A DNA stretch of 64,000 nucleotides, taken from assembly GCF_947581785.1 (NCBI RefSeq), contig NZ_CANPVO010000036.1, positions 15,490 to 79,489 on the forward strand, written 5' to 3'. The first letter of the stretch is position 1. Every line of letters begins with the position of its first letter. The notes beneath the pieces are model-generated. The model worked only from the letters and a program-made list of their open reading frames with translations, did no database searches and was not told where the DNA came from. Source of the stretch: Candidatus Palauibacter polyketidifaciens (GTDB lineage: Bacteria; Gemmatimonadota; Gemmatimonadetes; Palauibacterales; Palauibacteraceae). A program made the translations under genes and the position numbers. This document shows, piece by piece, positions 9,920 through 53,004 of this stretch.

Positions 9920-10762
9920 ATGCCCGACATCAATCTCATCGCTCACCCGCTGAGGGGTACGGCCTTCGGCACGGCGCTCGACCTGTGCCTGATCCTCGCC
10001 GCGCTGGTCTGGCTCCTGGGCGTCGTCACCCGCGAGTTCTCGTGGATCGACCGCCTGTGGTCGATATGCCCGGGCGCGTACTGCCTCATCGTGGCCTTCG
10101 GGACGAACTTCGCGTCGCCCCGCGTGAACCTCATGACGTTCCTCGTCGTGCTCTGGGGCGCGCGTCTGACCTTCAACTTCGCGCGCAAGGGCGGATACCA
10201 GCCGGGCGGCGAGGACTACCGCTGGGCCATCGTCCGGGAGAAGGCGGGGCCGGTGGGCATACAGGTCCTCAACCTCACGTTCATCAGCTTCGGGCAGATG
10301 CTGCTGATCTGGTGGTTCACCTCCCCGGTGCACCAGGCTGCGGTGTGGAGCGAGACGCCGCTCGGATGGCTGGATCTCCTGACCGCCGCGGTGTTCCTCG
10401 TGCTCTTCGTCGGCGAGGCCGTGGCCGACGAGCAGATGTGGCGCTTTCAGCAGGACAAGAAGCGGCGGATCGCGGCCAGAGAAGATGTGGCGCAGCCGTT
10501 CATGACTTCCGGATTGTTCCGCTATTGCCGCCATCCCAACTTCTTCTGCGAATTGGGCATGTGGTGGGTGTTCTACCTGTTCGCCGTCTCCGCCTCGGGT
10601 CAATGGCTCCACTGGACGGGCCTCGGCTTCATCCTGCTCACCGCGCTGTTAATTCCGTCGATGCGCCTCACCGAAACGATCTCCGCGTCGAAATACCCCG
10701 GATACCGCGACTACCAGGCCACCACGCCGGCGCTGATCCCCCGACCTGTGTCCAAGGCCTGA
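9920..10762 (+). CDS. DUF1295 / steroid 5-alpha-reductase-like membrane protein.
   Basis: 280 aa, multi-pass. GLFRYCRHPNFFCELGMWW is the NAD(P)H-binding signature of this family. ATG at 9920. Confidence 0.75.
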   Translation: MPDINLIAHPLRGTAFGTALDLCLILAALVWLLGVVTREFSWIDRLWSICPGAYCLIVAFGTNFASPRVNLMTFLVVLWGARLTFNFARKGGYQPGGEDYRWAIVREKAGPVGIQVLNLTFISFGQMLLIWWFTSPVHQAAVWSETPLGWLDLLTAAVFLVLFVGEAVADEQMWRFQQDKKRRIAAREDVAQPFMTSGLFRYCRHPNFFCELGMWWVFYLFAVSASGQWLHWTGLGFILLTALLIPSMRLTETISASKYPGYRDYQATTPALIPRPVSKA

Positions 10763-10802
10763 TGGCCCCAGGGCCCCGATTGCCACGCTTCCCGTTCTAC
10801 TA

Positions 10803-11821
10803 ACTTGATAGTGGAATTACCAGGCGATCCGGCACGTGCGGACGATCTCGAGGAAAGGCGAGGGCCCCGGCGAGCTGGACCGGCCCGAAGGGTTGGCGGT
10901 GTTCTCCGACGGGCGCATCGGCGTCATGGACTTCGCGAAGGTCGGGCTTCAGATGTTCGCCCGCGACGGCACGTTCCTGGAAGGGATCCGGTTCGCGACC
11001 GAGGCGGGGATCCCGGGGATTCCGTTTCATGCGATGCCCGACCACAGTGTTGTGACGGCGAGTGCGCTTCCGTCCCGACGGGAGTGGCGCGTTGTTCCAC
11101 GCGGTGTGGCGGGGCCCTCCGCCTGACGACACGCGACTGGAAGACGTGGAGTCCGGAGGAATCTTCATGCAACTGCGCCCGATCCAGGCCTTCCCCCCTC
11201 CGCTGGAACTGGGTGTATTCAGGGATGGCCGGGTCGCCATCGTCGACTCGGTCGGCAACCGGATCAAGATCGTCGGCCCGGAGGGAGAGGAAGGGAAGCA
11301 AGTCACCACGCTCGAGCGCCCGGTAGCTCCCGTCCGGGTAACGGGGCGGGTCCGCGACGCCAAACGTCCGCGGCGGCTGGCGCTGCAGGACTCCGAAGGG
11401 CGCTGCAGGACGTGCTCACGGAGGGCATTGCGATGGTGGTCATCCGCCCACCGAGCGGGGCTTCCGGCCCCCCCCCGATCCGGCCGCCATGGAAGCGGCC
11501 CTGCGCGGAACCTATCGGCGACAGATCGAACGCCTGGTCTTCCCTGAGGAGATGCCGGTCATCGAAAGGATCGCCGTGGATTGGAGCGGCCGGATCCGGG
11601 TCCAGCGCGCGGCGGTGCCGGGCGAGAGCGGTCCCAGGGATGTCCTCACCGCGGACGGCCGGTACCTGGGAACGCATGCCCCCGACGGACTGCGCCTCCC
11701 GGCCCCCTTCGGGCCGGACGGACTGCTGGCGTACATCGAGACCGATCCCCTCGGCATCCAGCGCATCCGTGTCATCCGCCTCGCCGGAGATCAGCCGCTG
11801 GAGACTCCCGGCACGGAATGA
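10803..11821 (+). pseudogene. Decayed, 5'-truncated, twice-frameshifted copy of the NHL-like lipoprotein family that follows it.
   Basis: Three consecutive ORF pieces in frames 0/1/2 (10836-11126, 11062-11547, 11489-11821) align in order to residues ~105-436 of the 11908 and 13317 paralogs ([13 protein letters not shown]..., [16 protein letters not shown]..., EEMPVIERIAVDWSGRIRVQRAAVPGESGP...LLAYIETDPLGIQRIRVIRL). No signal peptide is present and no N-terminal ~100 aa. Confidence 0.6.
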
Positions 11822-11907
11822 CCGAGGACGTTCCCACGGGGACGCGCCTCAACTATCTTCATAGTCGGAACCCCGTCAACTCCCCCCCGCGCAAGGAGAA
11901 ACAACCG

Positions 11908-13218
11908 ATGCGCCGCTCGCACAGCCATACCGTCCACGCCGTACTCGCCCCGGTTCTTCTGTCGGCCGCAGCCTGCGGTGGAGACGGGGGATCCGCGGCC
12001 CGCGGGCTCGACAGTCCCGACGTCACGATCTCTCCCGCGACGGACACGCTCTTCGCCGTCGGCGTACTGGACGGGGCGGAATGGGAAATGTTCGGCCGGG
12101 TCGCGGATGTCGCGTTCGACGCGGATGGCACTCTCTTCATCCTCGACAGCGACGCCGGACACGTGGTCGTGATCGATCCCGCGGGAGCATTCGTCCGCAC
12201 CATCGCCAACAAGGGAGAAGGACCCGGCGAGCTCCGCTTCCCAGCCAGCCTCATCGTGTTTGGCAACGGACGGATCGGTGTGCGCGACATGGGAAACCGG
12301 GGCATCGCGCTCTTCGACCGCGAGGGAGAGTTTCTCGAGGACGTCGGGATCGATCCGGAGGGTGCCGTCCCCTCTGGACGACTCCGCGCCCTGCCCGATC
12401 ACAGCCTCATCGCGCCGGCCCGCCGGATGAGCTTCTCGCCGGAGGGGATCATGGACCGGGAAGAGGGCCGTCCGATCACGCGCTTCCGGCTCGACGGAAG
12501 CACGGACCCGTTTCATGAGGCCTGGGCGCCTCCGCCGCGCGAAACCCGAACCGACGAAGCGGAGGCGGGGAACATCCGTATACAGATGGAGGCCGGAGAG
12601 GCCTTTCCGCTGCCGCTGGCGCTGGGCGTGCTCAGTGACGGCCGCGTCGCGATCGCCGACTCGGTCGGCTACCGCATCAAGCTGCTCGATGCGGCGGGGG
12701 GCCGCCTGTCGACCCTTGAGCGCCCGGTGCCGCCGGTGGCCGTGACGCCCGCGATCGAGGCGGCCGAACGCGAACGTCGTCTCGCAAGCCTCGAGTCCGG
12801 TGGAAGCGGTGGAGGCGGCGGCATCATGACCTTGAGCATCACCGCAGCGGCCGGATCGAGCGGCGGTGGGAACCCCATGGATTCGGAGGGTATGCAGGAG
12901 GCCTTGCGCCGGATCCGCGAGGATCAGATCCGGGATCTGAGGTTCCCGGAGGAGATGCCGGTGATCACGAATCTTGCCGTGGACTGGAGCGACCGCATCT
13001 GGGTGCAGCGCTCCGCCCTCCCCGGCGAGACCGGTACGATCGACATCCTGAGCGCCGACGGGCGGTACTTCGGCTCGCTCCCCACCGACGGCCTGAGAAT
13101 CCCCAGAGCCTTCGGCCCGGGTGGCCTGCTCGCCTACGTGGAGCGCGACGACCTCGACATCCAGCGCGTCCTGGTGGTCCGGCTCATGGCGGACGAACAA
13201 CTGGAGGGCGCTCGATAG
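11908..13218 (+). CDS. NHL-repeat-like beta-propeller lipoprotein, paralog family member.
   Basis: RBS AAGGAGAA then ATG. Lipobox LLSAAAC. NHL-like units such as [42 protein letters not shown]. Gly-rich linker [10 protein letters not shown]-terminus ...[20 protein letters not shown]. Confidence 0.75.
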
Positions 13219-13316
13219 ACATGGGCACGAACGCGCGCGGCGGGCAACCGTGGTCCGGTCTCCACTGTCACAGCCGGTGTCCGGCCGGTCGCCCGCGTCA
13301 ACCTGGGGAAAACCTC

Positions 13317-14642
13317 ATGCGCAAGATCCCTTGCCGTACGTACCGCACGCGTCATCTCGCCCTGCTCGCCCTCCCGATTGTGGCCATCGGCTGCGGGGGC
13401 GACGCCGGACCGGGCGACGCGGGGCTCGACAGCCCCGACGTCTCTCTCGCGCCCAGCGTGGAGGAGGTGTACACCGTCGGCGTGATGGACGGGGCCGCGT
13501 GGGAGATGTTCGGCAGCGTGATGGGCGTCGCCTTCGACGAGGACGGCTCGCTCTTCATCCTCGACAATGACGCCGGCCACATCGTCGTCGTCGGCCCGGG
13601 CGGCGAGTTCGAGCGGACGATTTCGAACAAAGGCGAGGGGCCCGGAGAACTCAACCAGCCGCTGGGACTCGCCGTGCTCGGTGATCGGCGGATCGCCGTC
13701 AACGACATGGGTCGCGGCATAAAGGTCTTCAACCGCGATGGCGAATCGCTCCAGGAGGCCGGGTTCACCTTCGAGACCGGGATGCCCGGTGCCGAGATGC
13801 ACGCCATGCCGGACCACAGCCTCCTCTCCGCGGGACTCGCCGGCCGATCGCTCACCGCGCTCATGCGAGGGGAGGAAGAAGAGGAGCCCGAAGGCCGGCC
13901 CATCGGCCGGTTCCGGCTCGACGGCACACAGGAGGAGTTCCACCTGGCCTGGGCGGGACCGCCCGTGGAAGACGCCGAGACGCAGACCGGAAACATGCGG
14001 ATCATCATGTCGCGGATGGAGGCGTTTCCCCTTCCCCTGAGCTTCGGCGTGCTTCGGGATGGCCGCGTCGCCCTCGCCGATTCCGTCGGCTACACGGTCA
14101 AGATCCTCGATGCCTCGGGGCAGGTGACGGGCACGCTCGAGCGGCCGATCTCGCCCGTCGCGGTCACCGACGAGATCCGGGACTCGGAGCGCGAGCGCCG
14201 GCTCGCCGCTGTGGCGGAAGGCGGGAGCGGAGGCGGTGGAGGCACCGTCTTCATGACCCGGACGATTTCGGTCAGCGGAAGCACCGGCTCCGGAAGGCCG
14301 AGCGGTCCCGATCCGGAGGCGATGCGCCGCATGAGGGAAGACCGGATCGCGGACATGGTGTTTCCAGATGAGGTGCCGGTCATCTCGAGGCTGGCCGTGG
14401 ACCGGAGCGACCGCATCTGGGTCGAGCGCTCGGCCCTGCGGGGAGAACCCGGTCCCACGGACATCCTCACCGCGGACGGGCAGTACTTCGGCACCATCGC
14501 TCCGGACGGGGTTCGCATCCCGGCCGCGTTCGGGCCGGACGGCCTCCTGGCCTACATCGAGCCCGACGAACTCGGCATCCAGCGCGTCCGCGTCGTCCGC
14601 CTCGTCGGCGACCAGCCACTGGAAGCGGCGGAGGGCGGCTGA
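13317..14642 (+). CDS. NHL-repeat-like beta-propeller lipoprotein, tandem paralog of the 11908 gene.
   Basis: Lipobox IVAIGC. Collinear with the upstream copy ([42 protein letters not shown]; EGGSGGGGG; [20 protein letters not shown]). Confidence 0.75.
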
Positions 14643-14654
14643 CCGAGCGCCGGG

Positions 14655-14996
14655 CTAGCGCGACTTCTTCGCCACGAAGAGCGCGAGCAGCAGAGCCACG
14701 GTCGGAACCGCGGCCTGGGGCACCGTGCCCGCCCGCACGAGCGTGTAGATCGCGCCGGCCATGATCGGCACCACAACGACCGCCGCCATGAACCGCATCC
14801 TGCCGAGCAGGAAGCCGACTCCCGCCAGCGCCTCCACGACGCCGATCAGGTACTGGAACCACGCCGGGTAGCCCCACAGCGCAAACTGGTCGACCATCAT
14901 CCCGGCGACCTTCATCCCGCCGTTCAGAAGGAAGAGCAGCGCCAGCAGAATCGACGCCACCTTGACGGCCTTGCCTGCGTTTCCGTTGTTCGCCAC
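14655..14996 (-). CDS. DoxX family membrane protein.
   Basis: 113 aa with 3-4 TM helices. DoxX-like fold motifs LNGGMKVAG...FALWGYPAWFQYLIGVVEALAGVGFLLG. Confidence 0.75.
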   Translation of the reverse strand: MANNGNAGKAVKVASILLALLFLLNGGMKVAGMMVDQFALWGYPAWFQYLIGVVEALAGVGFLLGRMRFMAAVVVVPIMAGAIYTLVRAGTVPQAAVPTVALLLALFVAKKSR

Positions 14997-15059
14997 TGGA
15001 GGCTCCTCGCGTTGGAAGTACGTGGTCCGGCCCCGGGCCGATTCCTGAACCTTGGCCGC

Positions 15060-15887
15060 TCATCCGTCGATGGCCAGACCGCCTCCCTCGTCGCGAGGAT
15101 CGGCGAGTTTCCGCCCGAAGTGCTGCGCGCGCCACGTCGAGCGTTCGCACCGGAGGAAGCAGACCTCTTCCGACTCCGGGTCGGATGGTTGGTCACCCGG
15201 CCGCCGGGCGCCGCGGGAAGAGAGCGAGTCGGTCACCACGTCGGCGGCGGCGAGGCGGAGGCCCAACCAGCTGAAGAGAAGCTCCGGATCCTCCGGCGCC
15301 TCCGGCGCGTGGCGGGCCAGCCACTCGTCCCGGAGCGCCTCCCATTCCAGCCACAGGTTCTCCCCCCAGCCATCGCTCGTGGCGGCAATCACGGTGTCGT
15401 GGAGCTCTCCCGGCTCGTGCTCCCCGGGTCGCTCGTCCCAGTGCAGGAGGCCGGCCAGGAAACCCGCCATGATCCAGTATCGATGCGCGTCTCCGTCGTC
15501 CCGGGCACGCCGCGTTTCATTCAGGACGCCGAGGATCTGCAGGTAGCCCGCGTCCCAGTCGAACGCATCGCCCGCCGTCTCCTCGCCCCCGGTCCCGTCG
15601 TCTTCCGACCGCAGTCTCGACTCGACTAGGCTCCGGACCCGGCGCACCGCGTCCAGATCGTCCCTCTCCACCGCATCGGAGATGTCGTCGAACAGTGCCT
15701 CCGAGTCCATGCCCGGGAAGTGGGCGGAGAAGGCGATCCCGCCCGCCTCTCCGAGCCGAAACGTCCCCTGCCGCTCGGCGCCGGATTCATGGGGTTCGGC
15801 GGCGGGCACGCGCGCCAGCCAGAAGATCGCTTCGTCCAGCGCGGTCAGGAGTTCTCCATAGGCGGACCGCTGCCGCTCGGCGTCCAT
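15060..15887 (-). CDS. Acidic hypothetical protein (Asp/Glu/Trp-rich), no family recognised.
   Basis: 275-aa ORF starting 21 bp after the cyclase stop. Composition is not shadow-like (many D/E/W). No domain call. Confidence 0.5.
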   Translation of the reverse strand: MDAERQRSAYGELLTALDEAIFWLARVPAAEPHESGAERQGTFRLGEAGGIAFSAHFPGMDSEALFDDISDAVERDDLDAVRRVRSLVESRLRSEDDGTGGEETAGDAFDWDAGYLQILGVLNETRRARDDGDAHRYWIMAGFLAGLLHWDERPGEHEPGELHDTVIAATSDGWGENLWLEWEALRDEWLARHAPEAPEDPELLFSWLGLRLAAADVVTDSLSSRGARRPGDQPSDPESEEVCFLRCERSTWRAQHFGRKLADPRDEGGGLAIDG

Positions 15888-34176: not shown

Positions 34177-35904
34177 CTACGGCTCTACGAACACGTCGCG
34201 CCACGCGAGGCGCGTCGCAAGTTCGAGTTCCACGCCCTCGTCCACGCCCCGCGGCCGCAGGAGGACCGGTTCGCCGAGAGGGACGCCGCAGATCGCGAAT
34301 CGGCCTCGCTCGTCGGACGCCCCGCCGGCGTATTCCGACTGCTCGGACACCGAGGCGGTCCGCGCCGCGCCCTGAAGCCGGCGCACCCGCCACACGACCT
34401 CGATCTCGATATCCGGCACCGGGAGCCCGGTGTCCGCATCGCGTGCGATCCCGACCACGGCACCCGTACTCCCCCGGGGCGACGAACGGGGACAGATGCG
34501 CGCGAAGAGGGCGTCGGCGGACGGCGTCCACAGCTCGAGGGGCTCGCTGACCCGGTCGTCGACCACGACGCGGATCTCGTTCATCCGCACGCCGGCGGCA
34601 CGCAGTCTCGGATGGTCCACGCCCAGCGCGTATGCGCCGTCCGGGAGCCCGCCCACCTGGAACCGGCCGGCGTGATCGGTGACGGCGCTGAACGGGGCGT
34701 CGGCCGCATTGGGCCGGGGCACGAACGCTGCCGCGTCATCCCAGTCCCGAAGCACGACGTCCGCGCCGCCGAGCGGCTCGCCGCTCGCGCTGTCTCCGAG
34801 GACGCCCGCCACGACGCCTTCTCCCACCTCGAACGAGACGCCTCCGACGAACGCGTCGGACACCGTTCCGCCGGTCTGCCGGTACGCCACGAGCACGGCC
34901 CGCCGACGAGTCGAGAGGCCCGCGGTCCCGATGCGCCGGGAGTAGCCCCCGACCGGGAAGCGCAGCCACCAGTCGCGGACGTAGAAGGGGCCTTCCGGCA
35001 GACGGTCGAAAGTGAGGTCCGCGCCGACGAGTTGACGCCGCGCACCCTGCGGCAGGGGGACGTTGCGGTACCGGATCTGCACGCGACGGAGTTCCGCGCT
35101 CTCCTCGTCGAGCCAGAGCGTACCCTCGATATCGATGACGTCCCGATCATCCCTCGGGCGAAACGTGACGCCGAGCATCGGTTCGTCATCCACCTCATCG
35201 CGGCGGAGCCCGAAGCAGTGCGTGTTCCTGAACTCCCGGGACAGCAGCACGTTCGCGTCCGGCGCGTAGAAGACCGAGGAATCCGGGTCCACGAGCGCGT
35301 AGCCCGACGTCGTCAGCCGGCGCGCCGGCAGGCTCCGAAACGGCGGCAGACGCACATGTCGGCGGACGCGGCTCTCGGACTCCAGCGTCGAGAGATATTC
35401 GGGATCCAGCGTGCGCTCGTATTCCGTGACCGTGAACGTCACCTCGCCCCGGTCTTCGGCCCACACCGCAGTCTCGAGCGCCTTGCGAGCCTCTTCCCAG
35501 ACGGTGGCGAGCGCCGCTCCCTCGCTCGGATCGTCGAGGCAGGCCGCGGTGACTTCGACGCGGAGGTCCACGAGCCGCACCGGTCGCGGCGGGACTTCGA
35601 CAGTGACCGTCAGCGTCTGCCCCGCCGTCACTTCGTAGGCCTCGGTGACCCAGTTCGCGTATCCGATGCGCTGCACGCGGATGCGGTACTGCCCAGGGCC
35701 GGGCGCCGTCAGCGAAAAGAGGCCGTCCGCAGCCGTGAAATCGGCCTGCCCGGCCTCGCCGGCCGCGTCCAGAAGGCTGACGAAACCGCCCGAAATGAGC
35801 GGTCCGCCCTCGGCTTCGCGTACCGTGCCGTTGATCCGCTGGGCGGCAGCGGGCGAAGCGACCGCCGGGGCGATGATGGCCATCGCGAGCAGTAGCAGCC
35901 TCAT
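34177..35904 (-). CDS. Secreted protein with two carboxypeptidase-regulatory-like (CarbopepD_reg) beta-sandwich domains.
   Basis: Signal MRLLLLAMAIIAPAVASPAAAQ. RINGTVREAEGGPLISGGFVSLLDAAG...YRIRVQRIGY, and a second copy GVVAGVLGDSASGEPLGGADVVL...GAYALGVDHP. Confidence 0.6.
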   Translation of the reverse strand: MRLLLLAMAIIAPAVASPAAAQRINGTVREAEGGPLISGGFVSLLDAAGEAGQADFTAADGLFSLTAPGPGQYRIRVQRIGYANWVTEAYEVTAGQTLTVTVEVPPRPVRLVDLRVEVTAACLDDPSEGAALATVWEEARKALETAVWAEDRGEVTFTVTEYERTLDPEYLSTLESESRVRRHVRLPPFRSLPARRLTTSGYALVDPDSSVFYAPDANVLLSREFRNTHCFGLRRDEVDDEPMLGVTFRPRDDRDVIDIEGTLWLDEESAELRRVQIRYRNVPLPQGARRQLVGADLTFDRLPEGPFYVRDWWLRFPVGGYSRRIGTAGLSTRRRAVLVAYRQTGGTVSDAFVGGVSFEVGEGVVAGVLGDSASGEPLGGADVVLRDWDDAAAFVPRPNAADAPFSAVTDHAGRFQVGGLPDGAYALGVDHPRLRAAGVRMNEIRVVVDDRVSEPLELWTPSADALFARICPRSSPRGSTGAVVGIARDADTGLPVPDIEIEVVWRVRRLQGAARTASVSEQSEYAGGASDERGRFAICGVPLGEPVLLRPRGVDEGVELELATRLAWRDVFVEP

Positions 35905-35962
35905 GCCAAAATGTCGCGAGGCGCCGCCATCGGCGCCAATCCGGACCGCCGGAGGCCGGCGG

Positions 35963-37978
35963 TCAATCGGCGAGGCGCAGCGCGATCAGCGTGTTCGGCG
36001 CCTGGATGACGACGTGCTGACGTCCCTCGTGCATGTACGTCATCATCCCGTACCGCGGCAGCGCCGGCAGCTCCACCTGTCCGAGCCGCTCGCCCGTCGC
36101 CTTGTCCACGGCGAAGAGGTAGGAGGTCCCGTCACTTCCCTCCCCCGTGTACATGAGCAGGGTGCTCGTGACGATCTGCGCGGCTTGCCGTCCCGTGCCC
36201 GTGTTCGGGATGTCCATGCCCTGGAGCGCGTCATGCTCGAGCACGCTGTTCGGCGTGTCTCCCACCGGAATCCACCACAGGTGCTCGCCCGTGTTCATGT
36301 CGATCGCCGTGATCCGGCTGTACGGGGGCTTGAAGAGCGGCAGCCCCTGCACCCGCCGAACCCCCGCGAACCCGCCGACCGCGAACTTCGTGATCGTCGT
36401 CCCCGTCTGCGCGGGCTCCCGGGCGTCACGCTCCTCGCCCGGCACCATGATCCGCGACCCGCACCCCTTCTGCGACGTCACGTAGAGGATGCCCGTCTCC
36501 GGATCCGCCGCCGGCGTCCCGTCGATGTTCGTGCCGCCCACGTCTCCCGGACACCACATCGACGCCATCTTGCCGAGATCGTTGTCCCGGTGCAGCGGCG
36601 GCGTGAACAGCGGCCCGATCACATAGTCGTCGAGCGCCTCGATCGCGGCTTCCCGCAGTTCCGGCGTGAAGTCGATCAGGTCGTCGTGCGTCAGCCCCTG
36701 CATGTCGTACGGCGCCGGCCAGGTCGGGAACGGCTGCGTCGGCGAGAGCGCCTCGCCCGGCATGAGACCCTCCGGCACCGGCCGCTCCTCGATGGGCCAG
36801 ATCGGCTCGCCCGTCTCCCGGTTGAACGTGTACGCGAAGGCCTGCTTCGTGACCTGCACGACCGCTGGGATGTCCTTGCCATCGACGGTCACGTCCATCA
36901 GCACGGGGATCTGCGGCGTGTCGTAATTCCATATGTCGTGGTGCACGAGCTGATAGTGCCAAACCCGTTCTCCCGTCTGCACATCGAGCGCGATCAAGCT
37001 TGTGGAGAACAGGTTGTCTCCCGGCCGGAAGCCCCCCCAGAAGTCCATCGTGGCCCCGTTGGTAGGGATGTAGACGATGCCCCGCTCCTCGTCCGCCGAG
37101 AGCGGCGCCCACGACGAGATGTCGCCCGTCCATTCCCAGGCGTCGTTTTCCCAGGTCTCGTGTCCGAACTCGCCCGGGCCGGGGAGGACGTTGAACTTCC
37201 ACATGAAGTCGCCCGTGCGGGCGTCGTAGCCGAGGATGTCGCCCGGCACGTTCTCGCGCCGTGACTGGTTGTAGCCCTGCTCGGCGGAGTTCCCGACCAC
37301 GATCACGCCGTTGACGACGATCGGGGGGGACGAACTCGTGATGTAGCCGGTCTCGAGCGGGATGCCGTGGTACGGGTCGAACTCGTGCCCCAGCCCCGCG
37401 AGCAGGTCGACGACCCCCGACTCGGGGAAGCCCGGGACGCTGACGGGCCCGCCGAAGCCCTCCACATGCTCGCCCGTGTCGGCCCACAGCGCGTGCAGGA
37501 AGAAGGCCGGACTCACCATGTAGACGACCGCGCGACCGTCGATCTCCCCGTACGCGACGCCCTTCCCGTGGTTCTTCCGCATCGAGTATTCCCAGCGGAA
37601 GGTTTCGGGCTCGACGTACTCCCAGATCTTCTCCCCGGTGCCCGCGTCGATCGCGTACGTGTGCCGCTTCTCGCCCGCCACGGAGATCAGCATCCCGTCG
37701 ACGTAGATCGGCGTGGCGCGCGCGTTAACGGCCGGGTAGTCCGACCCGTCCCAGACCCACGCGATCTCGAGATCCCCGAAGTTCTCCGCGTCGATCTGGT
37801 CGAGGGACGAGTAGCGCTGGCCCATGTCGTTGCCCGCGATGTTCCTCCACTCGGCGCCGTCGGCCGCGCCCCCGCCACCTTCGGCGCAGCCCGCGGCGGC
37901 GACGCCGAACGCGAGCAGGACGGAGATGCGGCGCCACATGGATGGCGGCGCATGGGATGTAGAGCGCACTCTGCTCAT
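35963..37978 (-). CDS. PQQ-dependent dehydrogenase (8-bladed propeller, methanol/ethanol/glucose dehydrogenase family) lipoprotein.
   Basis: ATG at 37978 (alternative at 37939 giving MWRRISVLLAFGVAAAGC lipobox). AWVWDGSDYPAVNARATPIYVDGMLISVAGEKRHTYAIDAGTGEKIWEY, with W-rich PQQ repeats throughout. 671 aa. Confidence 0.8.
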   Translation of the reverse strand: MSRVRSTSHAPPSMWRRISVLLAFGVAAAGCAEGGGGAADGAEWRNIAGNDMGQRYSSLDQIDAENFGDLEIAWVWDGSDYPAVNARATPIYVDGMLISVAGEKRHTYAIDAGTGEKIWEYVEPETFRWEYSMRKNHGKGVAYGEIDGRAVVYMVSPAFFLHALWADTGEHVEGFGGPVSVPGFPESGVVDLLAGLGHEFDPYHGIPLETGYITSSSPPIVVNGVIVVGNSAEQGYNQSRRENVPGDILGYDARTGDFMWKFNVLPGPGEFGHETWENDAWEWTGDISSWAPLSADEERGIVYIPTNGATMDFWGGFRPGDNLFSTSLIALDVQTGERVWHYQLVHHDIWNYDTPQIPVLMDVTVDGKDIPAVVQVTKQAFAYTFNRETGEPIWPIEERPVPEGLMPGEALSPTQPFPTWPAPYDMQGLTHDDLIDFTPELREAAIEALDDYVIGPLFTPPLHRDNDLGKMASMWCPGDVGGTNIDGTPAADPETGILYVTSQKGCGSRIMVPGEERDAREPAQTGTTITKFAVGGFAGVRRVQGLPLFKPPYSRITAIDMNTGEHLWWIPVGDTPNSVLEHDALQGMDIPNTGTGRQAAQIVTSTLLMYTGEGSDGTSYLFAVDKATGERLGQVELPALPRYGMMTYMHEGRQHVVIQAPNTLIALRLAD

Positions 37979-38223
37979 CGAGACCTCTTGAACGGGGGAG
38001 ATGATCGACGCGGCCGCCGACGGGCGGCGGCTGGCGGGCGCTGAACATGAGCCGCCCCCAATTCGGTGGTCAAGCTCCGATCCCCTCCTGCGACGCTGCG
38101 GCCGCACGGAGATTCCTGCGTTGGAGCCGCCCGCCTTGCGGGCAAAGGCAAGCCCTCCCCGAGAAATCGATCCGGGGAGGGCTTGCGGGACTGCTGCGAA
38201 CGACCGAGCCCGGCTAGCCGTCG

Positions 38224-38712
38224 TTAGTGCTCGTGGACGTGAACGTGGAGCGGCGCGGTCACGAAGTCCGCGTGCCCCGACCCGACCGCACCGTGCATCA
38301 GGCTGAAGGTCACGTCCGTATCGCCCTCCGCCACTCCGTGCAGGTGTCCTCCGAACTCGCCGGGGGTGTCCTGCTCGAACTCCGCGACGGATTCGTCCTC
38401 GACCTCGACCATCAGGTAGAAGTCGCTGCCGAGCGTGACCGCCTGCGCGTTGTGATCTACGAACATGACCTGGATATGGGCGGTTTCCTCGCCGGGCTCG
38501 ACCTCGAGTTCTCCCGTCCACTGTCCGGTGTCTCCGTTGTAGGCGGCGATGTTCTGGCCGCTCAGCGACAGGATCACGCCCTCGACTTCTTCGGCATGAT
38601 CTTCCTCATCGTCATGATCGTGGGGTTCCATGGCGCTGTCGCCGCAGGCGGCAAGGACGAGCAGTCCCGCGGTCAGCAGGGCGAATGGCCGTTTCGGCTG
38701 AAAATGTCTCAT
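38224..38712 (-). CDS. His-rich metal-binding lipoprotein.
   Basis: Lipobox LVLAAC. N-terminal EPHDHDDEEDH, C-terminal GHLHGVAEG...HGAVGSGHADFVTAPLHVHVHEH. It lies 80 bp downstream of the TonB-dependent receptor on the same strand. Confidence 0.65.
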   Translation of the reverse strand: MRHFQPKRPFALLTAGLLVLAACGDSAMEPHDHDDEEDHAEEVEGVILSLSGQNIAAYNGDTGQWTGELEVEPGEETAHIQVMFVDHNAQAVTLGSDFYLMVEVEDESVAEFEQDTPGEFGGHLHGVAEGDTDVTFSLMHGAVGSGHADFVTAPLHVHVHEH

Positions 38713-38791
38713 CTTTCTTCACCTCGTTGTGTTGATGTTCCGGTCGCTCCCGTCACGAAGCATCTCCGCTTGCGGCTTCGTATGGCTCGCT

Positions 38792-41008
38792 CTAGAAGAC
38801 GACGCGATAAGCCACGCTAACAGATCTCCCGGCCTCGGGCATGATCTCCTTCACGCGCGACAAGTGGTTTCTGTACACTGCGTTGCCAAGGTTCTCCCCC
38901 CGTACGGTGATCACGTTCAGCCGCCCAAGAACCGTGATCCGGATGCCGGCGGAGAGATCGAACACTGTATATCCGTCAGTTGCGCTCTCAAAGGGACCCG
39001 TCCGGTCCTGGCCAGCCGCAACCCGCGTTTCCGCTTCGACGAACCAGTTGCGAGGCGCGTAGCCGACGGCGAAGTGCCCCTGCAGCGGCGGGATCAGCGG
39101 AAGCGGTTCGTCTGTCTCCACGATCCTGCCCCGGGTGTACGAAGCCACGGCCTCTACGGTCAGGTCCCCGACCAGCGCCCACTCGAGCGCGCTCTCGAAT
39201 CCCGTGAGCACCGCGTCTTCTCCCTGGAACTGGAAGATCGGCAACCGCACGCGGCTCAACTCTCCCGTCTCGAGCGGGAACACGTAGTCCGCGATGGCGT
39301 TATGGAACCACGTCACCTCGGCGTTCAGCCGGTCACCCACAAGACGCATGAACACGTCGATCCCTGTCCCGCGCTCCACCTCGAGCGACGGGTTCCCGAC
39401 CTCGAAGGCGTAGGCCGCCAGATGGGGACCCTCCGAGAAGAGTTCGTTGACGCTGGGGGTGCGGAACGCCCTGGCGACGGAAGCACCCACCGTGAAGCTC
39501 GGCGTGAGCTGCGCCAGGGCCCCAAGGGACCCGGATGCCGCACCGAACGATCTCTCGCGGATGTGGCCGATGTCGGAGGAGGGATCCTCCCGGTCGGGCC
39601 GCACGCGCACCCAGTCGTAGCGGAGGCCCGCCTCCACGCGTATCGGATTCAGATCGACCTCCTCCAGCACGAACACGGCAAAGGAGGTCTGCGTCGAGTT
39701 CGGCGTGAAGAGGGCGCCTCCGAATCCGAAGTCTTCCCGGGAACCCCGCGTTCCCACCCCTCCCGAGGAGAAGGGGCCCCAGCCGCTGTGGCGGGCGAGG
39801 ACCTCGCCGCTCACCGTCTGGCGCTCGAAGAGCGTTCCCAGGATGTCCGGGGGTTCGATCTCCCGGTGCTCGTACCACGTGTGTCCCGCGTCGACCTCGA
39901 TGCTCTCGAAAACCTCGGCGGGCCGGAGTACGCTGCGCAGCCTGGTCGCGGTCCGCTCCATCTCGACGCGCACCCCGGCGTCGTGACCCCCGACGAATCC
40001 TCCGGGGATGCCGTAGTCGTTGCCGTAGTAGCGGAAGGTCGCGCCGGCATGTCCCCAGTCGTCCACCCACGAGGTTCCGCCGGAAATCTCCCGGATATCC
40101 GTACTCGTATTCTGCAGGGGTCCGACCGGGGTCTCCAGATCGCCGCTGCTGCGACGGGAGAGCTCCAACCGCACCGGGATATGGTCCGTCACGCCATACG
40201 TGAGATTCAGGCTTCCGCTCGCCGCGTTGCTGACGCTCTGTCCCTGGAGGGTGAAGGCGCCCGTAAGGTGGTGCGGCACGGATGAGGGCACATCGTCGCG
40301 AACCACGTTGATGACGCCCCCCAGCGCGTTGCTTCCGTACAGAATCGCACCCGGTCCGCGGATCACCTCGACGCGGCGCGCCGACGATGGATCGATCGCC
40401 GTGGCGTGGTCGGGGCCGCTCGCAAACTCGTCGCCGACCCGTTCCCCATCCTCGAGCATCAGGATGCGGTCACCGCTGAGCCCCCGGATCACCGGGTGCG
40501 CAGAGGCCGGCCCCATGGTGCTCACCGCCAGCCCCGGCTCGGAGGACAACGTCTCCGCCAGGGTTCCGGCCAGACGACGCTGCAGATCCTCTCCCGCGAA
40601 TACGCTGGTCGGGCGCAGCACTTCGTTCGCCGCGCGGGCCACGACCGACCCCGTGACCACGAGGTCCGGCAGCGGGATGGGATTGGCCTCCATCGTCACC
40701 AGTACGATCTCTTCCGCCGATGCATCGACTTCCAGCGCGACCGTGCGGTAGCCCAGCCGTTCGACCCGCACCGTGTAGGTTCGCGGGCCCGGCACCGGGA
40801 GGTGGAACGTGCCGTCACCGTGCGAGACCGCCCGGCCACCCGAAGCAGCGATGGAGACCATGGCGCCGGCGAGAGGCTCGTTGGAGTCGGCATCGCGCAC
40901 GATGCCCTCGATCTCACCCGCGTGTTCCACCTGCGCGGACGAGTCGGTGGCTCCAACAGCCATTGCCAATGCGGCCGGGATCAGACCGGCCAGACGCCTT
41001 GTCACCAT
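38792..41008 (-). CDS. TonB-dependent outer-membrane receptor with N-terminal CarbopepD_reg domain.
   Basis: Signal MVTRRLAGLIPAALAMAVGATDSSAQ. CarbopepD_reg (EGIVRDADSNEPLAGAMVSIAA...YTVRVERLGY). Plug (PVIRGLSGDRILMLEDGERVGDE). 22-strand barrel ending ...SVAYRVVF (C-terminal aromatic). Confidence 0.85.
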   Translation of the reverse strand: MVTRRLAGLIPAALAMAVGATDSSAQVEHAGEIEGIVRDADSNEPLAGAMVSIAASGGRAVSHGDGTFHLPVPGPRTYTVRVERLGYRTVALEVDASAEEIVLVTMEANPIPLPDLVVTGSVVARAANEVLRPTSVFAGEDLQRRLAGTLAETLSSEPGLAVSTMGPASAHPVIRGLSGDRILMLEDGERVGDEFASGPDHATAIDPSSARRVEVIRGPGAILYGSNALGGVINVVRDDVPSSVPHHLTGAFTLQGQSVSNAASGSLNLTYGVTDHIPVRLELSRRSSGDLETPVGPLQNTSTDIREISGGTSWVDDWGHAGATFRYYGNDYGIPGGFVGGHDAGVRVEMERTATRLRSVLRPAEVFESIEVDAGHTWYEHREIEPPDILGTLFERQTVSGEVLARHSGWGPFSSGGVGTRGSREDFGFGGALFTPNSTQTSFAVFVLEEVDLNPIRVEAGLRYDWVRVRPDREDPSSDIGHIRERSFGAASGSLGALAQLTPSFTVGASVARAFRTPSVNELFSEGPHLAAYAFEVGNPSLEVERGTGIDVFMRLVGDRLNAEVTWFHNAIADYVFPLETGELSRVRLPIFQFQGEDAVLTGFESALEWALVGDLTVEAVASYTRGRIVETDEPLPLIPPLQGHFAVGYAPRNWFVEAETRVAAGQDRTGPFESATDGYTVFDLSAGIRITVLGRLNVITVRGENLGNAVYRNHLSRVKEIMPEAGRSVSVAYRVVF

Positions 41009-41168
41009 GGACAGCCTTCTTCGAGACGCAACGGCAACCGCTTCTGCTGGAGCGGCGCGGTGCATCTCGCTGAAAACGCTTCTGCGGGTAACGGGTGTTT
41101 CGGGAGACTTGCGATCCGCCTCCCACGGGACGATCGGGGGGCTTCCGGGACGACGGCCCGGAAGCGGG

Positions 41169-48895: not shown

Positions 48896-49882
48896 TCAGC
48901 TGGCGGCGGGGCGCACCACGATGGTGATTTCCTCATCGGCGAACAGACCGCCGTCGTCGGCGCGGCCACGGAGGATATAGGTCCCCGGCTGCTGGAAGGT
49001 CGCGGTCACCGTCCAGCGGTCATCCTCCGGCAGGTCCGGGGGGCGCCAGAGCGGCGCCCACGGCGAGTTCGCGCCGGTGCGCGTGTCCTCCCAGACCTTC
49101 ACCTGCGGCGGATCGAACGCCACCTCCCCCTCTCCGCGGTAGACGAACCACGACATGAAGAGGCCGTTCACCTTCTGCACCGTCACGCGCGAGGGGGGCC
49201 GGAGCTGGCGGCCGCTGAAGCTGGGGAACGCGTTCGCGATCGAGTCGACGCGCGCGGAGTCCTCCGCGGTCTCCGGCGGGTCGGGCGGACCCTGCCGGAA
49301 CGCCCGCAGCAGGCCGTCGTCCTCCACGGTGACGCTCACCGTGACCGGCTGGCCGACGATCGCCTCGCGCGTCCGCTCGCCCTCGAGCGTGATCTTCGGC
49401 GGTTCGTTGGACCGCATCTCGGCGTTGCTGGAACCCGCGCCGAGCGCGCCGGTCTCCGACATGATCACCGTGTTGTCGACGATGTAGTCGGGCCGCAGCG
49501 TGGCGTACGCCTTCTCGGTGACTCCGTGGCTCGTGAGCGTCCACACGAGTTCCCTGTCGCCCCAGTCGGCGGGCACGCGAACCTTGAACACGAAGCGGTT
49601 GCGGCGCGGGAGGAAGTGGGTCGGCTGCCCCCGGTCGGCGGGGCCCGGCGAGAACACGTTGTCATCCCCCACGGGGACGTCGATCTCCTCGACCCAGTTC
49701 CGGTTCATGTAGCCGAAGAGAAAGTTGAACGACCCGTCCTCGTTCTGCTCCCATCCCTCGTACGCCGGCGCGACGTTCTGTCCCCGAGCGTAGGTCTGGG
49801 CGGCGGCGGGAAGCGCGGACACGGCGAGGATCAGCCCCAGAAGCGGCACGGCCAGCGCCCCGGGCCGCGCGACCCGGGGCAT
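48896..49882 (-). CDS. Secreted hypothetical protein.
   Basis: Signal MPRVARPGALAVPLLGLILAVSALPAAAQ. 328 aa, no family recognised. Starts 20 bp after the stop of the c-type cytochrome gene. Confidence 0.6.
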   Translation of the reverse strand: MPRVARPGALAVPLLGLILAVSALPAAAQTYARGQNVAPAYEGWEQNEDGSFNFLFGYMNRNWVEEIDVPVGDDNVFSPGPADRGQPTHFLPRRNRFVFKVRVPADWGDRELVWTLTSHGVTEKAYATLRPDYIVDNTVIMSETGALGAGSSNAEMRSNEPPKITLEGERTREAIVGQPVTVSVTVEDDGLLRAFRQGPPDPPETAEDSARVDSIANAFPSFSGRQLRPPSRVTVQKVNGLFMSWFVYRGEGEVAFDPPQVKVWEDTRTGANSPWAPLWRPPDLPEDDRWTVTATFQQPGTYILRGRADDGGLFADEEITIVVRPAAS

Positions 49883-49902
49883 GGAAACCGGTTCGGCCAC
49901 GA

Positions 49903-51507
49903 TCACCGTTCCCGGTGGTCGCCGGGATCGCGGCCATCCCCGGACCCCGATTCGCCTTCGCCGGAAGACTCGGCCTCGGTGGCGGCATCGGACTGCCACC
50001 ACTCGGCGTCGGCGAAGTAGCTCATGTCGCCGTTGGCCGGGATGACCATGCAGAGCGGGCAGCCGACGACGTGGTCGTTGGGGCCGAGCGCGAGCCGGTG
50101 CCGGCGCATCGCCATCTCCTCCACGAACTGTTCATCCGACATCTCCACGCGCATGCCGAGGTCGATGAACATGTTCGCCACGGAACGGTTCCCCGAACCC
50201 TGCCAGTTGCGCGTGTCCGGGACGTTCCGGTTCGCCTCCGAGGTGTCCATGTAGCCGATGATGTGGAGGACGGTCCCCTTCGGAAGGAGCGGCTGGTGGT
50301 CCTGCGCGTAGGTGTAGCCGCGCACCCAGTTGTGGTCGTAGCCGACGCAGTTCAGCGTCTCGACGTTGAAGCCCCAGATCGCCTCGAGGCACATGCGCAT
50401 GCCGGGCGCATGCAGGTGCGGCTCGAAGGTCACGAGCTTGGTGTGCTGGTTCAGCACCTTGTAGGCGTGAAGTTCCTGCCCCGCCACCCCGGGCCGGATG
50501 TCGATGTCGCTTCCGTTGCCGAGCCCGAAGACGCTCCGCCGGTATTTCGGCTCGTAGTCCTCCGGATGGAAGCGGAACCCGATCTCCAGGTGGGCGCGCG
50601 TGTCGCGGCCGTTGGAGTGGAGGTGGACGGAGTTCGACACCACCGAGGAGCCCGCCCTGAGCAGGCGGCCCGCGTCGTCGTCGAAGAGGTCGGGTTCGCG
50701 GCCGACCTCGTGCACCGGCCAGCCGGTGTCCGTGGAGGCGCGCCGCGAGCCGGGCCCCGTCTCCTGGCCCTCGAGGACGCGCGTGCTCCAGATCATGTGG
50801 TGGACGACGAACCGTCCGCCGACCGTATGGCGCCCGCCGTGTTCCCCGTCGCGCCGCTGCGGCACGTCGTTCACCTCGCGGATCTCGACGGACTTCACGT
50901 AGCGGTCCTCGGTGAGGCCCGTGGGCACGCTCTCGATGTCCCCCCACCAGTCGGGCGCGTCGCCCTTCACGAGCACTTCGGGGAGCCTGACGATCAGGTC
51001 CGGCTCGCCCGCGGCCCAGACCACGTCGTCGTCGAACTCGAGCGCGGGCGGCAGGTTCGCCGGGTCGCCCTCGGGGGTGCCGGCGCGCCGCCAGGCGTCG
51101 AGCGCCTCGATCTCCCACTCGTCGAGCGACATGTCATCCTTGAAGTGCTGGATGCCGATGTCCTTCTCCACGTACCACGGCGGCATCGCGCCGGCCCGGT
51201 CCCGGATCTGGGTGCGGCGGGCGATCATGCTCGCGTACGGCTGGACGTCGTCGTAGGTGACGAGCGGCATCGGGGCGACGCCGTTGTCGCGGTGGCAGCG
51301 AACGCAGGCCCGCTGCAGGATCGGCGCGATGTCGCGGCTGAAGGTCACGTCGTCCGCCTCGACGCCCGGCGTCCCTGTCGCGGCATGGCGTGCGGTCGCG
51401 GCGGGCCCGCCGTCCTGCGCCGCCATCCCGCCGGCGGAGAGCAACATGAGGACGGGCAGGACGGAAGATCTCCGGGCGAGAGACAAGATCCGCGTGGTGT
51501 GCGGCAT
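49903..51507 (-). CDS. Cytochrome c domain-containing secreted protein (single CxxCH).
   Basis: AAGGAG 5 nt before ATG 51507. Signal MPHTTRILSLARRSSVLPVLMLLSAGGMAAQ. Heme site DIAPILQRACVRCHRDNGVAPMPL. 534 aa. Confidence 0.6.
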   Translation of the reverse strand: MPHTTRILSLARRSSVLPVLMLLSAGGMAAQDGGPAATARHAATGTPGVEADDVTFSRDIAPILQRACVRCHRDNGVAPMPLVTYDDVQPYASMIARRTQIRDRAGAMPPWYVEKDIGIQHFKDDMSLDEWEIEALDAWRRAGTPEGDPANLPPALEFDDDVVWAAGEPDLIVRLPEVLVKGDAPDWWGDIESVPTGLTEDRYVKSVEIREVNDVPQRRDGEHGGRHTVGGRFVVHHMIWSTRVLEGQETGPGSRRASTDTGWPVHEVGREPDLFDDDAGRLLRAGSSVVSNSVHLHSNGRDTRAHLEIGFRFHPEDYEPKYRRSVFGLGNGSDIDIRPGVAGQELHAYKVLNQHTKLVTFEPHLHAPGMRMCLEAIWGFNVETLNCVGYDHNWVRGYTYAQDHQPLLPKGTVLHIIGYMDTSEANRNVPDTRNWQGSGNRSVANMFIDLGMRVEMSDEQFVEEMAMRRHRLALGPNDHVVGCPLCMVIPANGDMSYFADAEWWQSDAATEAESSGEGESGSGDGRDPGDHRER

Positions 51508-51591
51508 CACATCGCTCCTTGCGGGAGGACTCGTTCGCAAAAGGGTACGCAACGGGCGAAGCCCCGGTCAAACGCCGCGCTAACCACTACG

Positions 51592-53004
51592 CTAGCCACC
51601 GTCGTCGCCTGAGCCACCCGGGGCGGGCGACCCCAGCGCCATTGGGGTGGTCGGCGGCAGCCGCTTCAGGATGATCGTCGGGACATCGAACTCGTCCGTC
51701 TCCACGAAGGCGACGAGGCCGCCGGGCCCGAACGCGTCGGGCATGGGCGTCTCCTCCAGCGCCAGAGTGCCTATGTACTCGCCCTCCGGCGAGAGAACAT
51801 CGATCCAACCGGCCGCTGCCTCCTCCCTTTCCGGCCCTCCGGCCACGACTGGGGCCTCAGCATCGATCTGCGCCAGGGGGTCGCTCCCCCAGCGCTGAAC
51901 CCAGATCGCCCCCTCCCACGTCGTCCGCAGGTCCCGCACGATGGGCACTTCCGGCATGAAGTCCGCGTTCGCCATTGCGTCGCGCATCCCGGCCATCATC
52001 TCCTCCAGCATCGCCGCCACCTGCGCGCGAACCTCCGGCGGGAGATCGTCGAACGACTGGCCGTTGAACTGTCCGGTAGCCGAGGCTTCCAGAGCTTCCA
52101 GCATCCGGGCCCGGGCGCGCTCCCGCAGCGATTCCGTGACGGGCTCGGGCTGGAGGGGGCGGCCGATGACACGGACCGGAGCCCCGGGGGTCGGCTGGAT
52201 CTTGATCGCGTAGGCGGAGGAATCCGAGTACGCCACGCCGCCGCCTGGGAGGACATCGAACACGAGGTCCGGCACGAACCCCATGAACGCGTCGCCGAAA
52301 GCGTCGAACATGTCCGACGGATCCGCCGCCTCCATCGTGACCTCCTGCTCCGGCTGCGCCTCCCACCCTTCCGCGAAGGGCACCGCGGTGGCCTCGTCCG
52401 CGGTGGCCTCGGCCGCGTCGGCGAGCGACGTGCGGTAGATGGTGCGGTCGCCGGCCTCGATGGACGCTTCCCCGTTGCTGAAGCGCGCGTTCGGGCTTCG
52501 AGTCAGGAACAGGGTTTCCCCCTCCCGGGCGGCGCGCACGGTCTCCGCCGAGGCGGTCTCCGAGGCGCCCTCGATCGCGAACCGGACCGTGCGCTCGAAC
52601 GACCCATCGGGGCCGAACAGGAGGTAGGCGCGGTGACCGTTGTCGACGATCACAACCCCTCCCCCGGGCCGGGCCACCATGTGCCCCACGTCGCGAAGCT
52701 CGCCCGGACCGTCGCCCCTGCGCCCGAACTCGGCCACCAGGCCTCCGACGCCATCCACGACCACGATGCGGGTGGAGGACGCGGCTTCGTCGCGGACGTA
52801 GAGCCGCCCGCCCGCATCGAAGGCCAGGTCCGCGATCTCCGTGAACGCGTCCCACCCCTCGGCGGCGATCCCCCCGATCCGGTACACCTCCTCGAAATCG
52901 GCCTGGAGCGGACGGTCCTCTGCGGGCGACGGGGCGGACGTACCCCCGGTCTCGCCCCCGCAACCCGCCAGCAGGGTGATCCACACCGCGCGGCTGAATC
53001 TCAT
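51592..53004 (-). CDS. NHL-like beta-propeller lipoprotein, distant fourth member of the family at 10.8-14.6 kb.
   Basis: Lipobox MRFSRAVWITLLAGCGG. GRRGDGPGELRDVGHMVARPGGGVVIVDNGHRAYLLFGPDG. C-terminus WIDVLSPEGEYIGTLALEETPMPDAFGPGGLVAFVETDEFDVPTIILKRL is collinear with ...[26 protein letters not shown]. Confidence 0.7.
   Translation of the reverse strand: MRFSRAVWITLLAGCGGETGGTSAPSPAEDRPLQADFEEVYRIGGIAAEGWDAFTEIADLAFDAGGRLYVRDEAASSTRIVVVDGVGGLVAEFGRRGDGPGELRDVGHMVARPGGGVVIVDNGHRAYLLFGPDGSFERTVRFAIEGASETASAETVRAAREGETLFLTRSPNARFSNGEASIEAGDRTIYRTSLADAAEATADEATAVPFAEGWEAQPEQEVTMEAADPSDMFDAFGDAFMGFVPDLVFDVLPGGGVAYSDSSAYAIKIQPTPGAPVRVIGRPLQPEPVTESLRERARARMLEALEASATGQFNGQSFDDLPPEVRAQVAAMLEEMMAGMRDAMANADFMPEVPIVRDLRTTWEGAIWVQRWGSDPLAQIDAEAPVVAGGPEREEAAAGWIDVLSPEGEYIGTLALEETPMPDAFGPGGLVAFVETDEFDVPTIILKRLPPTTPMALGSPAPGGSGDDGG

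Follow-up and report, generated by a model that had tools for sequence, protein, structure and literature searches.

What are the tandem propeller lipoproteins of Candidatus Palauibacter polyketidifaciens for, and why is one of their genes in ruins? The question is posed by a 64,000-nucleotide stretch of contig NZ_CANPVO010000036.1 (called the window below; G+C content ~69%), in which two intact genes, A and B, follow the remains of a third, R, and a diverged relative, D, lies on the opposite strand. An earlier note on this DNA had seen here a locally expanding, decaying lipoprotein family under diversifying pressure, perhaps an adhesin, receptor or enzyme family. Judged by comparison with related loci, the region is the remnant of an old tandem paralog array between genes for a DUF1295 and a DoxX-family membrane protein, with an ordinary pattern of gene loss, and its propellers may serve as binding or sensor modules in a circuit of the BlaI/BlaR1(M56) type; in this explanation as a whole we place about equal belief and doubt. 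A paralog array with a young pseudogene in an already labelled family is routine in itself. What the locus offers is, first, a cleanly dated view of an uncultured marine lineage in the act of losing a gene, with an intact ortholog, a readable succession of lesions and visible differences between strains. It also offers a testable functional lead, made up of an operator candidate, an operon that is conserved and a fusion that recurs, on DUF5128-like propellers and on the many BlaR1-like M56 proteins in Gemmatimonadota without a penicillin-binding sensor. If true, the BlaI/M56 reading would be the first functional handle on a large family lacking an assigned function.

Propeller lipoproteins of the array

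Genes A, B and D were taken from the listing of open reading frames and the translation of the window. With each as a tblastn query against the window, A and B align at 55-56% identity over 433 amino acids (E 1e-128 to 1e-138), and D aligns with both over its full length (447-468 amino acids) at ~28% identity (E 1e-24 to 1e-37); beyond A, B, D and the relic, no further family copies are found in the 64 kb. This similarity is far beyond chance, and the picture drawn in the earlier note, of A and B as collinear lipoproteins and D as a fourth, diverged member, stands, as do the lipoboxes, the NHL-unit motif, the Gly-rich run and the C-terminal module that it described. By inspection, A (MRRSHSH...LLSAAAC), B (...PIVAIGC), D (...TLLAGC) and the intact R protein of a relative (...FGVAGC) each have a positively charged N-terminus, a hydrophobic stretch and a lipobox Cys, with Cys23 and Gly24 conserved to 90% or more across 69 relatives of the family. 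From the lipobox alone, the proteins are predicted to be tethered to the membrane, facing the periplasm or the surface. (A appears in GenBank and in some ENA gene calls as a 466-residue product, 11818-13218, which starts inside the end of the relic; the 436-residue start is favored because of its conserved AAGGAG and the lipoprotein signal.) A is 100% identical to a GenBank protein from a Gemmatimonadales metagenome-assembled genome (MAG) called "6-bladed beta-propeller", and this is the name that NCBI already gives to the family. Orthologs of A in eight species have 75-94% amino acid identity; D has orthologs in other Gemmatimonadota (715 database proteins at E <= 1e-10, those listed being 50-99% identical).

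Profile searches and structure prediction agree on the fold. The Pfam NHL profile (PF01436, cutoff 20 bits) matches A at 24.7 and B at 23.3 bits, with no direct match for D, and the Pfam DUF5128 profile (PF17170, cutoff 22.9 bits) scores 31.5 for A, 19.1 for B and 14.9 for D, with only positions 52-127 of its 321 aligned; many orthologs carry precomputed PF17170 matches. NCBIfam gives only sub-threshold matches of the ScyF type (ScyF NF035926, 38 bits against a cutoff of 350). When a family profile is built from the 69 relatives, residues 57-150 carry its matches to the TRIM71, TRIM2/3 and Thin NHL domains (E 1e-39 to 1e-31); BF0058 (4RAA) is matched at E 2e-6. In the AlphaFold prediction, A is a single propeller of ~27 strands (mean predicted local distance difference test (pLDDT) 83.8, predicted template-modelling score (pTM) 0.83), in which low confidence is limited to the signal peptide and the Gly-rich loop. 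Foldseek places six-bladed NHL domains at the top of the matches to this model (E 1e-15 to 1e-11, ~390-410 alignment columns, nearly the whole protein). The loop lies in an insertion late in the propeller, between helices at residues 281-296 and 327-342, the first of which has a nearly invariant ERERR motif (E287, R288, R290, R291). Taken together, profiles and model show each protein as a predicted single six-bladed NHL β-propeller with a lipoprotein signal and, as a family-specific insertion, a helical hairpin with a Gly-rich loop; the NHL-type assignment first made from the sequence is thus borne out.

The nearest known systems resemble the family in part. NHL domains (TRIM71/LIN-41, TRIM2/3, Brat, Thin) are likewise six-bladed, blades 1-2 of the present family being canonical NHL (TRIM71, E 1.7e-39), and known members such as TRIM71 are binding domains. 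Unlike the TRIM-type domains, the A family consists of bacterial lipoproteins in which blades 3-6 are strongly diverged and the hairpin and loop are inserted, and nothing in it suggests RNA binding; TM-scores of A against TRIM-type NHL domains are only 0.6-0.69 on the target and 0.42-0.46 on the query. DUF5128, with BF0058 of Bacteroides fragilis (4RAA) as its structure, is also a secreted bacterial six-bladed propeller whose function has not been assigned. Here the differences are that ~75 of the 321 profile positions align, that B and D fall under the cutoff, and that the Gemmatimonadota lineage has its own insertion and C-terminal motif. A literature search returned no mention of DUF5128, and the Palauibacterales paper makes no mention of NHL, propeller or BlaR. 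The family comprises 3218 clusters at 50% identity (E <= 1e-30; the count includes giant multi-NHL proteins). The best 80 of 356 genome hits all belong to Gemmatimonadota or to unclassified MAGs, and among them the nearest species representatives are Candidatus Palauibacter denitrificans, rhopaloidicola and ramosifaciens.

A candidate operator and a possible link to BlaI/M56

The evidence on function begins with a palindrome, ACTA-N6-TAGT. It has two matches in the window, against 0.03 expected, and these lie upstream of the relic and of A. Array copies elsewhere, assigned below to clades 0, R, A and B, repeat the arrangement: the palindrome is kept upstream of clade-A genes in loci L001, L002, L004-L006 and L008-L010 despite differing flanks, and is also found upstream of intact clade-R genes in L004, L012, L014, L018 and L019. 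Across 977 kb of non-redundant loci there are 27 sites. The genes that they precede are those of clades A and R, a single additional member of the family (L034), 11 that encode BlaI (PF03965) and one that encodes a lipoprotein of the metallo-β-lactamase (MBL) fold. In the promoters of the BlaI genes a TTGACA hexamer directly adjoins the palindrome; the palindrome also overlaps likely promoter elements. The MBL-superfamily gene (PF00753, HNHADH motif; L060 9693-11147, Ca. P. poriticola JAAXHJ010000083.1) encodes a 483-residue lipoprotein-like product and has the palindrome at its start, which suggests that the putative BlaI-type regulon may include a hydrolase.

The operons headed by these BlaI genes hold one or two M56/BlaR1-type proteases with TonB_C domains, and in ~12 loci BlaI is followed first by M56-TonB_C, next by a propeller paralog (43-45% identical to A) and last by CarboxypepD_reg proteins. 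In other loci (L064 6211-8801 and L079 6193-8918) an M56 protease of the BlaR1 type is itself fused to a propeller of the A family. Such fusions (~730 amino acids, PF05569 plus PF17170) form ~50 clusters at 90% identity that cover the whole query, and by its hydrophobic segments their layout is BlaR1-like, the propeller following the last segment. The BlaI gene beside the fusions in L064 and L079 has a different upstream palindrome, TCAAC-N5-GTTGA, and a distinct palindrome there is the pattern expected of separate autoregulated repressor pairs. (Other M56 relatives, such as P0445, carry a SUMF1/FGE-type domain, PF03781, instead of the propeller.) Among the matches listed, BlaI/M56 genes and the array occur in the same genome in at least 10 relatives, for example L037 with L004 and L041 with L008; the close relative Ca. 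P. rhopaloidicola has a BlaI/M56 operon (L037).

This arrangement parallels BlaR1/BlaI and MecR1/MecI, in which a PF03965 repressor likewise stands beside a PF05569 M56 membrane protease, a palindrome is likewise found at the repressor promoter and at distal targets, and the C-terminal domain of the M56 protein likewise follows the last hydrophobic segment. Unlike that of BlaR1, the putative sensor of the Gemmatimonadota M56 proteins is a propeller, a TonB_C or a SUMF1-type domain and not a penicillin-binding one. The operator of staphylococcal BlaI/MecI is a palindrome of the TACA/TGTA type; the candidate operator here, ACTA-N6-TAGT, differs from it.

Consequently, a mechanism can be proposed in which a BlaI-family repressor would bind ACTA-N6-TAGT both in the promoter of its own gene and in those of A and R, so that A, and formerly R, would be under BlaI-type control, as we infer from the shared site. 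An envelope signal would cause the M56 membrane protease to inactivate the repressor, and the propeller lipoproteins would be induced. B may be co-transcribed with A: it starts 98 bp after A, has no palindrome of its own, and is separated from A by no terminator-like site on the plus strand (a promoter and terminator scan of the array gave no useful plus-strand signal). Since many relatives have propeller and M56 protease in a single polypeptide, it is probable that the free propellers cooperate physically with M56 proteins, as sensor partners or as induced effectors; they would be periplasmic binding or sensor modules, not enzymes, and would belong to a signalling circuit of the BlaI/BlaR1(M56) type. 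A broader version is offered tentatively, as one that we would sooner doubt than believe: that Gemmatimonadota have a widespread and so far uncharacterised BlaI/M56 system of envelope signalling, in which lipoproteins with a DUF5128-like propeller serve either as periplasmic sensor partners or as effectors that are induced, with ACTA-N6-TAGT as operator and a small regulon made up of the BlaI-M56 operon, the propellers of clades A and R, and the MBL-fold lipoprotein.

Several points weigh against such a circuit. There is no BlaI or M56 gene in the 64-kb window, and B, D and clade 0 are without ACTA-N6-TAGT. The fused propeller is only 23% identical to A, and with the operon paralog at the identity given above, transfer of function from either to A is an extrapolation. 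Another factor could also be what binds the palindrome.

Sensor modules, enzymes or neither

Of the other explanations, the one that survives best keeps the circuit and changes the role of the propellers. They could be periplasmic enzymes of the NHL/SGL type, lactonases or lyases in the manner of Drp35, Vgb or PAL, that destroy the compound which triggers BlaI/M56, as BlaZ does in the staphylococcal system. The model of A does match Drp35, virginiamycin B lyase (Vgb) and PAL in Foldseek, at lower ranks (E ~1e-9, with 4RAA at E 6e-9), and the palindrome in front of the MBL-fold lipoprotein gene of L060 places a likely hydrolase in the putative regulon. Against this, no His or Cys outside the lipobox is invariant among the 69 relatives, and the invariant residues are mostly those of the repeated NHL structural motif, together with the ERERR helix and a C-terminal FGP.GL motif; Pfam gives no match at E <= 1 to SGL, arylesterase, TolB/PD40 or other enzyme families; the best structural matches are binding NHL domains; and a propeller in the position of the M56 C-terminal domain points to sensing. 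PAL has a conserved Zn-binding His triad and a catalytic Tyr/Arg. PAL (3FVZ) and the Drp35/SGL lactonases share the broad six-bladed fold class with the A family, but the latter has no conserved metal-binding His or acidic set (no His is even nearly invariant among the 69 relatives) and only ~10% identity to them, and is not a member; the profile match to 3FVZ reaches only E 9e-4, over two blades. An enzymatic role, which the earlier note had listed among its suggestions, is therefore unlikely. A receptor or binding role fits best, on evidence that the earlier note did not have: the palindrome of the candidate operator, the operon of BlaI and M56, and the fusion of M56 to a propeller.

It could also be argued that there is no regulatory link at all: the palindrome would belong to the promoter itself or be bound by some unrelated factor, and the lipoproteins would be general scaffold proteins of the envelope. 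The overlap of the palindrome with likely promoter elements agrees with this, as does its restriction, among the array clades, to A and R. Against it stand the presence of the site at BlaI promoters in 11 loci and the second BlaI paralog beside the M56-propeller fusion, which has its own different palindrome, as expected of autoregulated repressors; in addition, the operon and the fusion tie the family to M56 independently of the palindrome. We regard the absence of any link as rather improbable.

History of the array

A neighbour-joining tree without bootstrap of all array copies from 19 syntenic loci resolves at least four clades, named 0, R, A and B. Each is common to several Palauibacter species, which makes the duplications appear older than these species. 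Between DUF1295 and DoxX, the Palauibacter array has one to three family genes, in layouts such as R-A-B, 0-A-B, 0-R-B, A-B, R-B or B alone; clade B is present in most arrays compared, and the closest species representative (L005) has no R. DUF1295 lies directly upstream of the array in those syntenic Palauibacter loci whose left flank was recovered. The differences in copy number between genomes are best read as differential loss, and by this comparison the window genome is seen to keep A and B and to be losing R. Of the earlier description, "decaying" is thus apt, given the young clade-R pseudogene, and "locally expanding" is not, the clades being old and the one to three copies per locus fitting loss.

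The intact copies are under purifying selection gene-wide. Measured against the orthologs of Ca. P. rhopaloidicola, the gene-wide ratio of nonsynonymous to synonymous substitution rates (dN/dS) is 0.17 for A and 0.22 for B, like the 0.23 of the neighbouring DUF1295 gene, and the proposed diversifying pressure finds no support in these values. They bear also on the idea that the proteins are "eukaryotic-like" NHL factors by which a sponge symbiont interacts with its host, with copies turning over under diversifying or host-driven selection. The record titles of the closest genomes suggest sponge or coral hosts, papers on sponge symbionts count NHL repeat proteins as eukaryotic-like, and the copy number of the array varies. 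Yet dN/dS is ~0.2 gene-wide, as in neighbouring genes, the clades of paralogs seem to be of old date, relatives are also frequent in those Gemmatimonadota MAGs that have no host in their titles, and the family is as large as the cluster count above indicates (giant multi-NHL proteins included); a host-directed role is accordingly very doubtful.

Other features of the array concern exchange and rearrangement. Synonymous divergence from L004 across 9920-14642 varies ~six-fold (DUF1295 0.46, A 0.23, B 0.15, relic 0.075), and B is 93% identical in amino acids to the copy of Ca. P. irciniicola (L018), in which the neighbouring gene is from another clade; the two observations suggest recombination between species. 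In L002 (7921-11213, a JGI 3300012932 contig), the A-B-DoxX segment corresponding to 11827-15090 of the window is inverted between DUF1295/clade 0 and the cyclase side, with one breakpoint just upstream of the A palindrome; this may be a real inversion or a misassembly.

A young pseudogene upstream of A

In tblastn, A and B both align with 10836-11809, the matches being spread over three frames. Its ortholog is an intact gene for a 432-residue lipoprotein, which opens the array of Ca. P. rhopaloidicola (L004 3602-4900), and alignment of the two gives the history of the lesions. R was first put out of action when 308 bp were lost, its start codon and signal peptide among them; more indels followed. 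Coding homology begins at 10834, which is codon 91 of the intact ortholog, or about residue 96 of A, and continues in frame 0 (10836-11060), frame 1 (11062-11397), frame 0 (11400-11476) and frame 2 (11477-11821, stop included). The earlier note had recognized a decayed copy truncated at its 5' end and lacking a signal peptide, which is correct. It had counted two frameshifts in frames 0-1-2, in place of the three frame-changing indels, frames 0-1-0-2 and 5' deletion found here, and had started the copy at 10803, near residue 105, within what is intergenic DNA (10763-10833).

The lesions can be ordered by comparison of assemblies. The complete form seen in the window recurs base for base in L084 and L086, and all four lesions are also in L085. 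The three are ENA assemblies that carry different sample labels, and an assembly error is therefore very unlikely. (L084, a 299-kb contig, is 100% identical to the window over 12.8 kb and is possibly its source.) A GenBank MAG contig, VXMR01000081.1 (L003), is 99.2% identical to the window and carries the 308-bp and 4-bp deletions; over 12.2 kb, 54 of the 54 gap columns between the two fall inside the relic. Since this contig keeps the 53 bp and has a tract of ten C residues, the two shared deletions are the earlier and the other two lesions the younger. Relative to the intact ortholog, dN/dS of the relic is 0.44-0.51, well above the values for A and B, with a nonsynonymous excess (Fisher p 0.007).

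With its start and signal lost, its frame disrupted, an intact ortholog in a relative, the same lesions in several assemblies and a raised dN/dS, the upstream copy is on sequence comparison a genuine relic, a young pseudogene. That it is really an intact gene broken by assembly or sequencing errors, as the homopolymer lesion might suggest (C9 in the window and C10 in VXMR01000081.1, at a typical error site), is scarcely credible when the 308-bp deletion, with its loss of start and signal, and the 4-bp deletion are in every examined assembly of the lineage, the full window form is in three assemblies labelled with different samples, and the nonsynonymous share is raised.

Two other interpretations of the relic were rejected. 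It is not the ortholog of the intact 429-residue first gene of L001, as tree and identities place it in clade R with its ortholog in L004; and the middle frameshift is not a 20-nucleotide tandem duplication, as the repeat is native in L004 and the lesion is a 4-bp deletion.

Features of the locus and other observations

Table 1. Coordinates of the array, its flanking genes and gene D (positions in the window)
Feature	Position	Strand	Description
DUF1295 membrane protein gene	9920..10762	+	Pfam PF06966, E 5e-47; conserved left anchor of array
Retained upstream intergenic DNA of dead clade-R gene	10763..10833	+	Aligns with L004 up to 3564
Palindrome ACTAACTTGATAGT (ACTA-N6-TAGT)	10799..10812	+	Putative repressor operator of dead clade-R gene
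308-bp deletion junction	10833/10834	+	L004 3565-3872 missing: 37 bp of leader and 90.3 codons, start codon and lipoprotein signal included
Pseudogene, clade-R propeller lipoprotein	10834..11821	+	95.3% nucleotide and 92.9% amino acid identity to L004 3602-4900
53-bp deletion junction	11060..11061	+	Frameshift; window-type assemblies only, absent from VXMR01000081.1
4-bp deletion junction (GGCG)	11397..11398	+	Frameshift; common to window and VXMR01000081.1
Poly-C tract, 9 bases	11468..11476	+	Frameshift; 7 bases in intact ortholog, 10 in VXMR01000081.1
Palindrome ACTATCTTCATAGT (ACTA-N6-TAGT)	11852..11865	+	43 nucleotides upstream of A start codon; putative operator
Ribosome-binding site AAGGAG	11893..11898	+	9 nucleotides before ATG at 11908; conserved in orthologs
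Gene A	11908..13218	+	436-residue lipoprotein, lipobox SAAAC, Cys23; clade A; predicted six-bladed NHL propeller
Insertion late in A propeller	12748..12933	+	Residues 281-342; two helices joined by disordered Gly-rich loop (model secondary structure, pLDDT)
Gene B	13317..14642	+	441-residue lipoprotein, lipobox AIGC, Cys26; clade B
DoxX-family membrane protein gene	14655..14996	-	Pfam PF13564, E 2e-14, and synteny; conserved right anchor of array
Gene D	51592..53004	-	470-residue lipoprotein, lipobox LAGC, Cys15; diverged family member

Downstream of D (48896-51552, minus strand) are genes for a 549-residue CxxCH protein (49903-51552), which has a weak Cytochrome_CBB3 match and otherwise no family, and for a 368-residue protein without a match; both are conserved (89% and 81% in amino acids) beside the D ortholog in L092. 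The idea that D and its 549-residue neighbour form a split amidating system of the PHM/PAL kind was dropped, as Pfam and sequence searches of PDB detected no copper monooxygenase and nothing beyond a weak haem-c motif; it is further weakened by the adjacency of the two genes being found in a Palauibacter locus (L092) and not in L093 or L094.

Elsewhere in the window, a CarboxypepD_reg protein, a pyrroloquinoline quinone (PQQ)-dependent dehydrogenase propeller and a TonB-dependent receptor are encoded in a row on the minus strand (34177-41065); in other loci, proteins of the CarboxypepD_reg kind likewise come downstream in the BlaI-M56-propeller operons. To the right of the array, 15060-15887 (minus strand) encodes a 275-residue protein with no Pfam match and 74-76% nucleotide identity to orthologs in five relatives; the cyclase gene that flanks it is 93-94% identical, and the 275-residue protein is either fast-evolving or replaced. 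Finally, two adjacent tandem DUF6644 paralogs, of 184 and 166 residues, lie at 58323-59377 on the plus strand.

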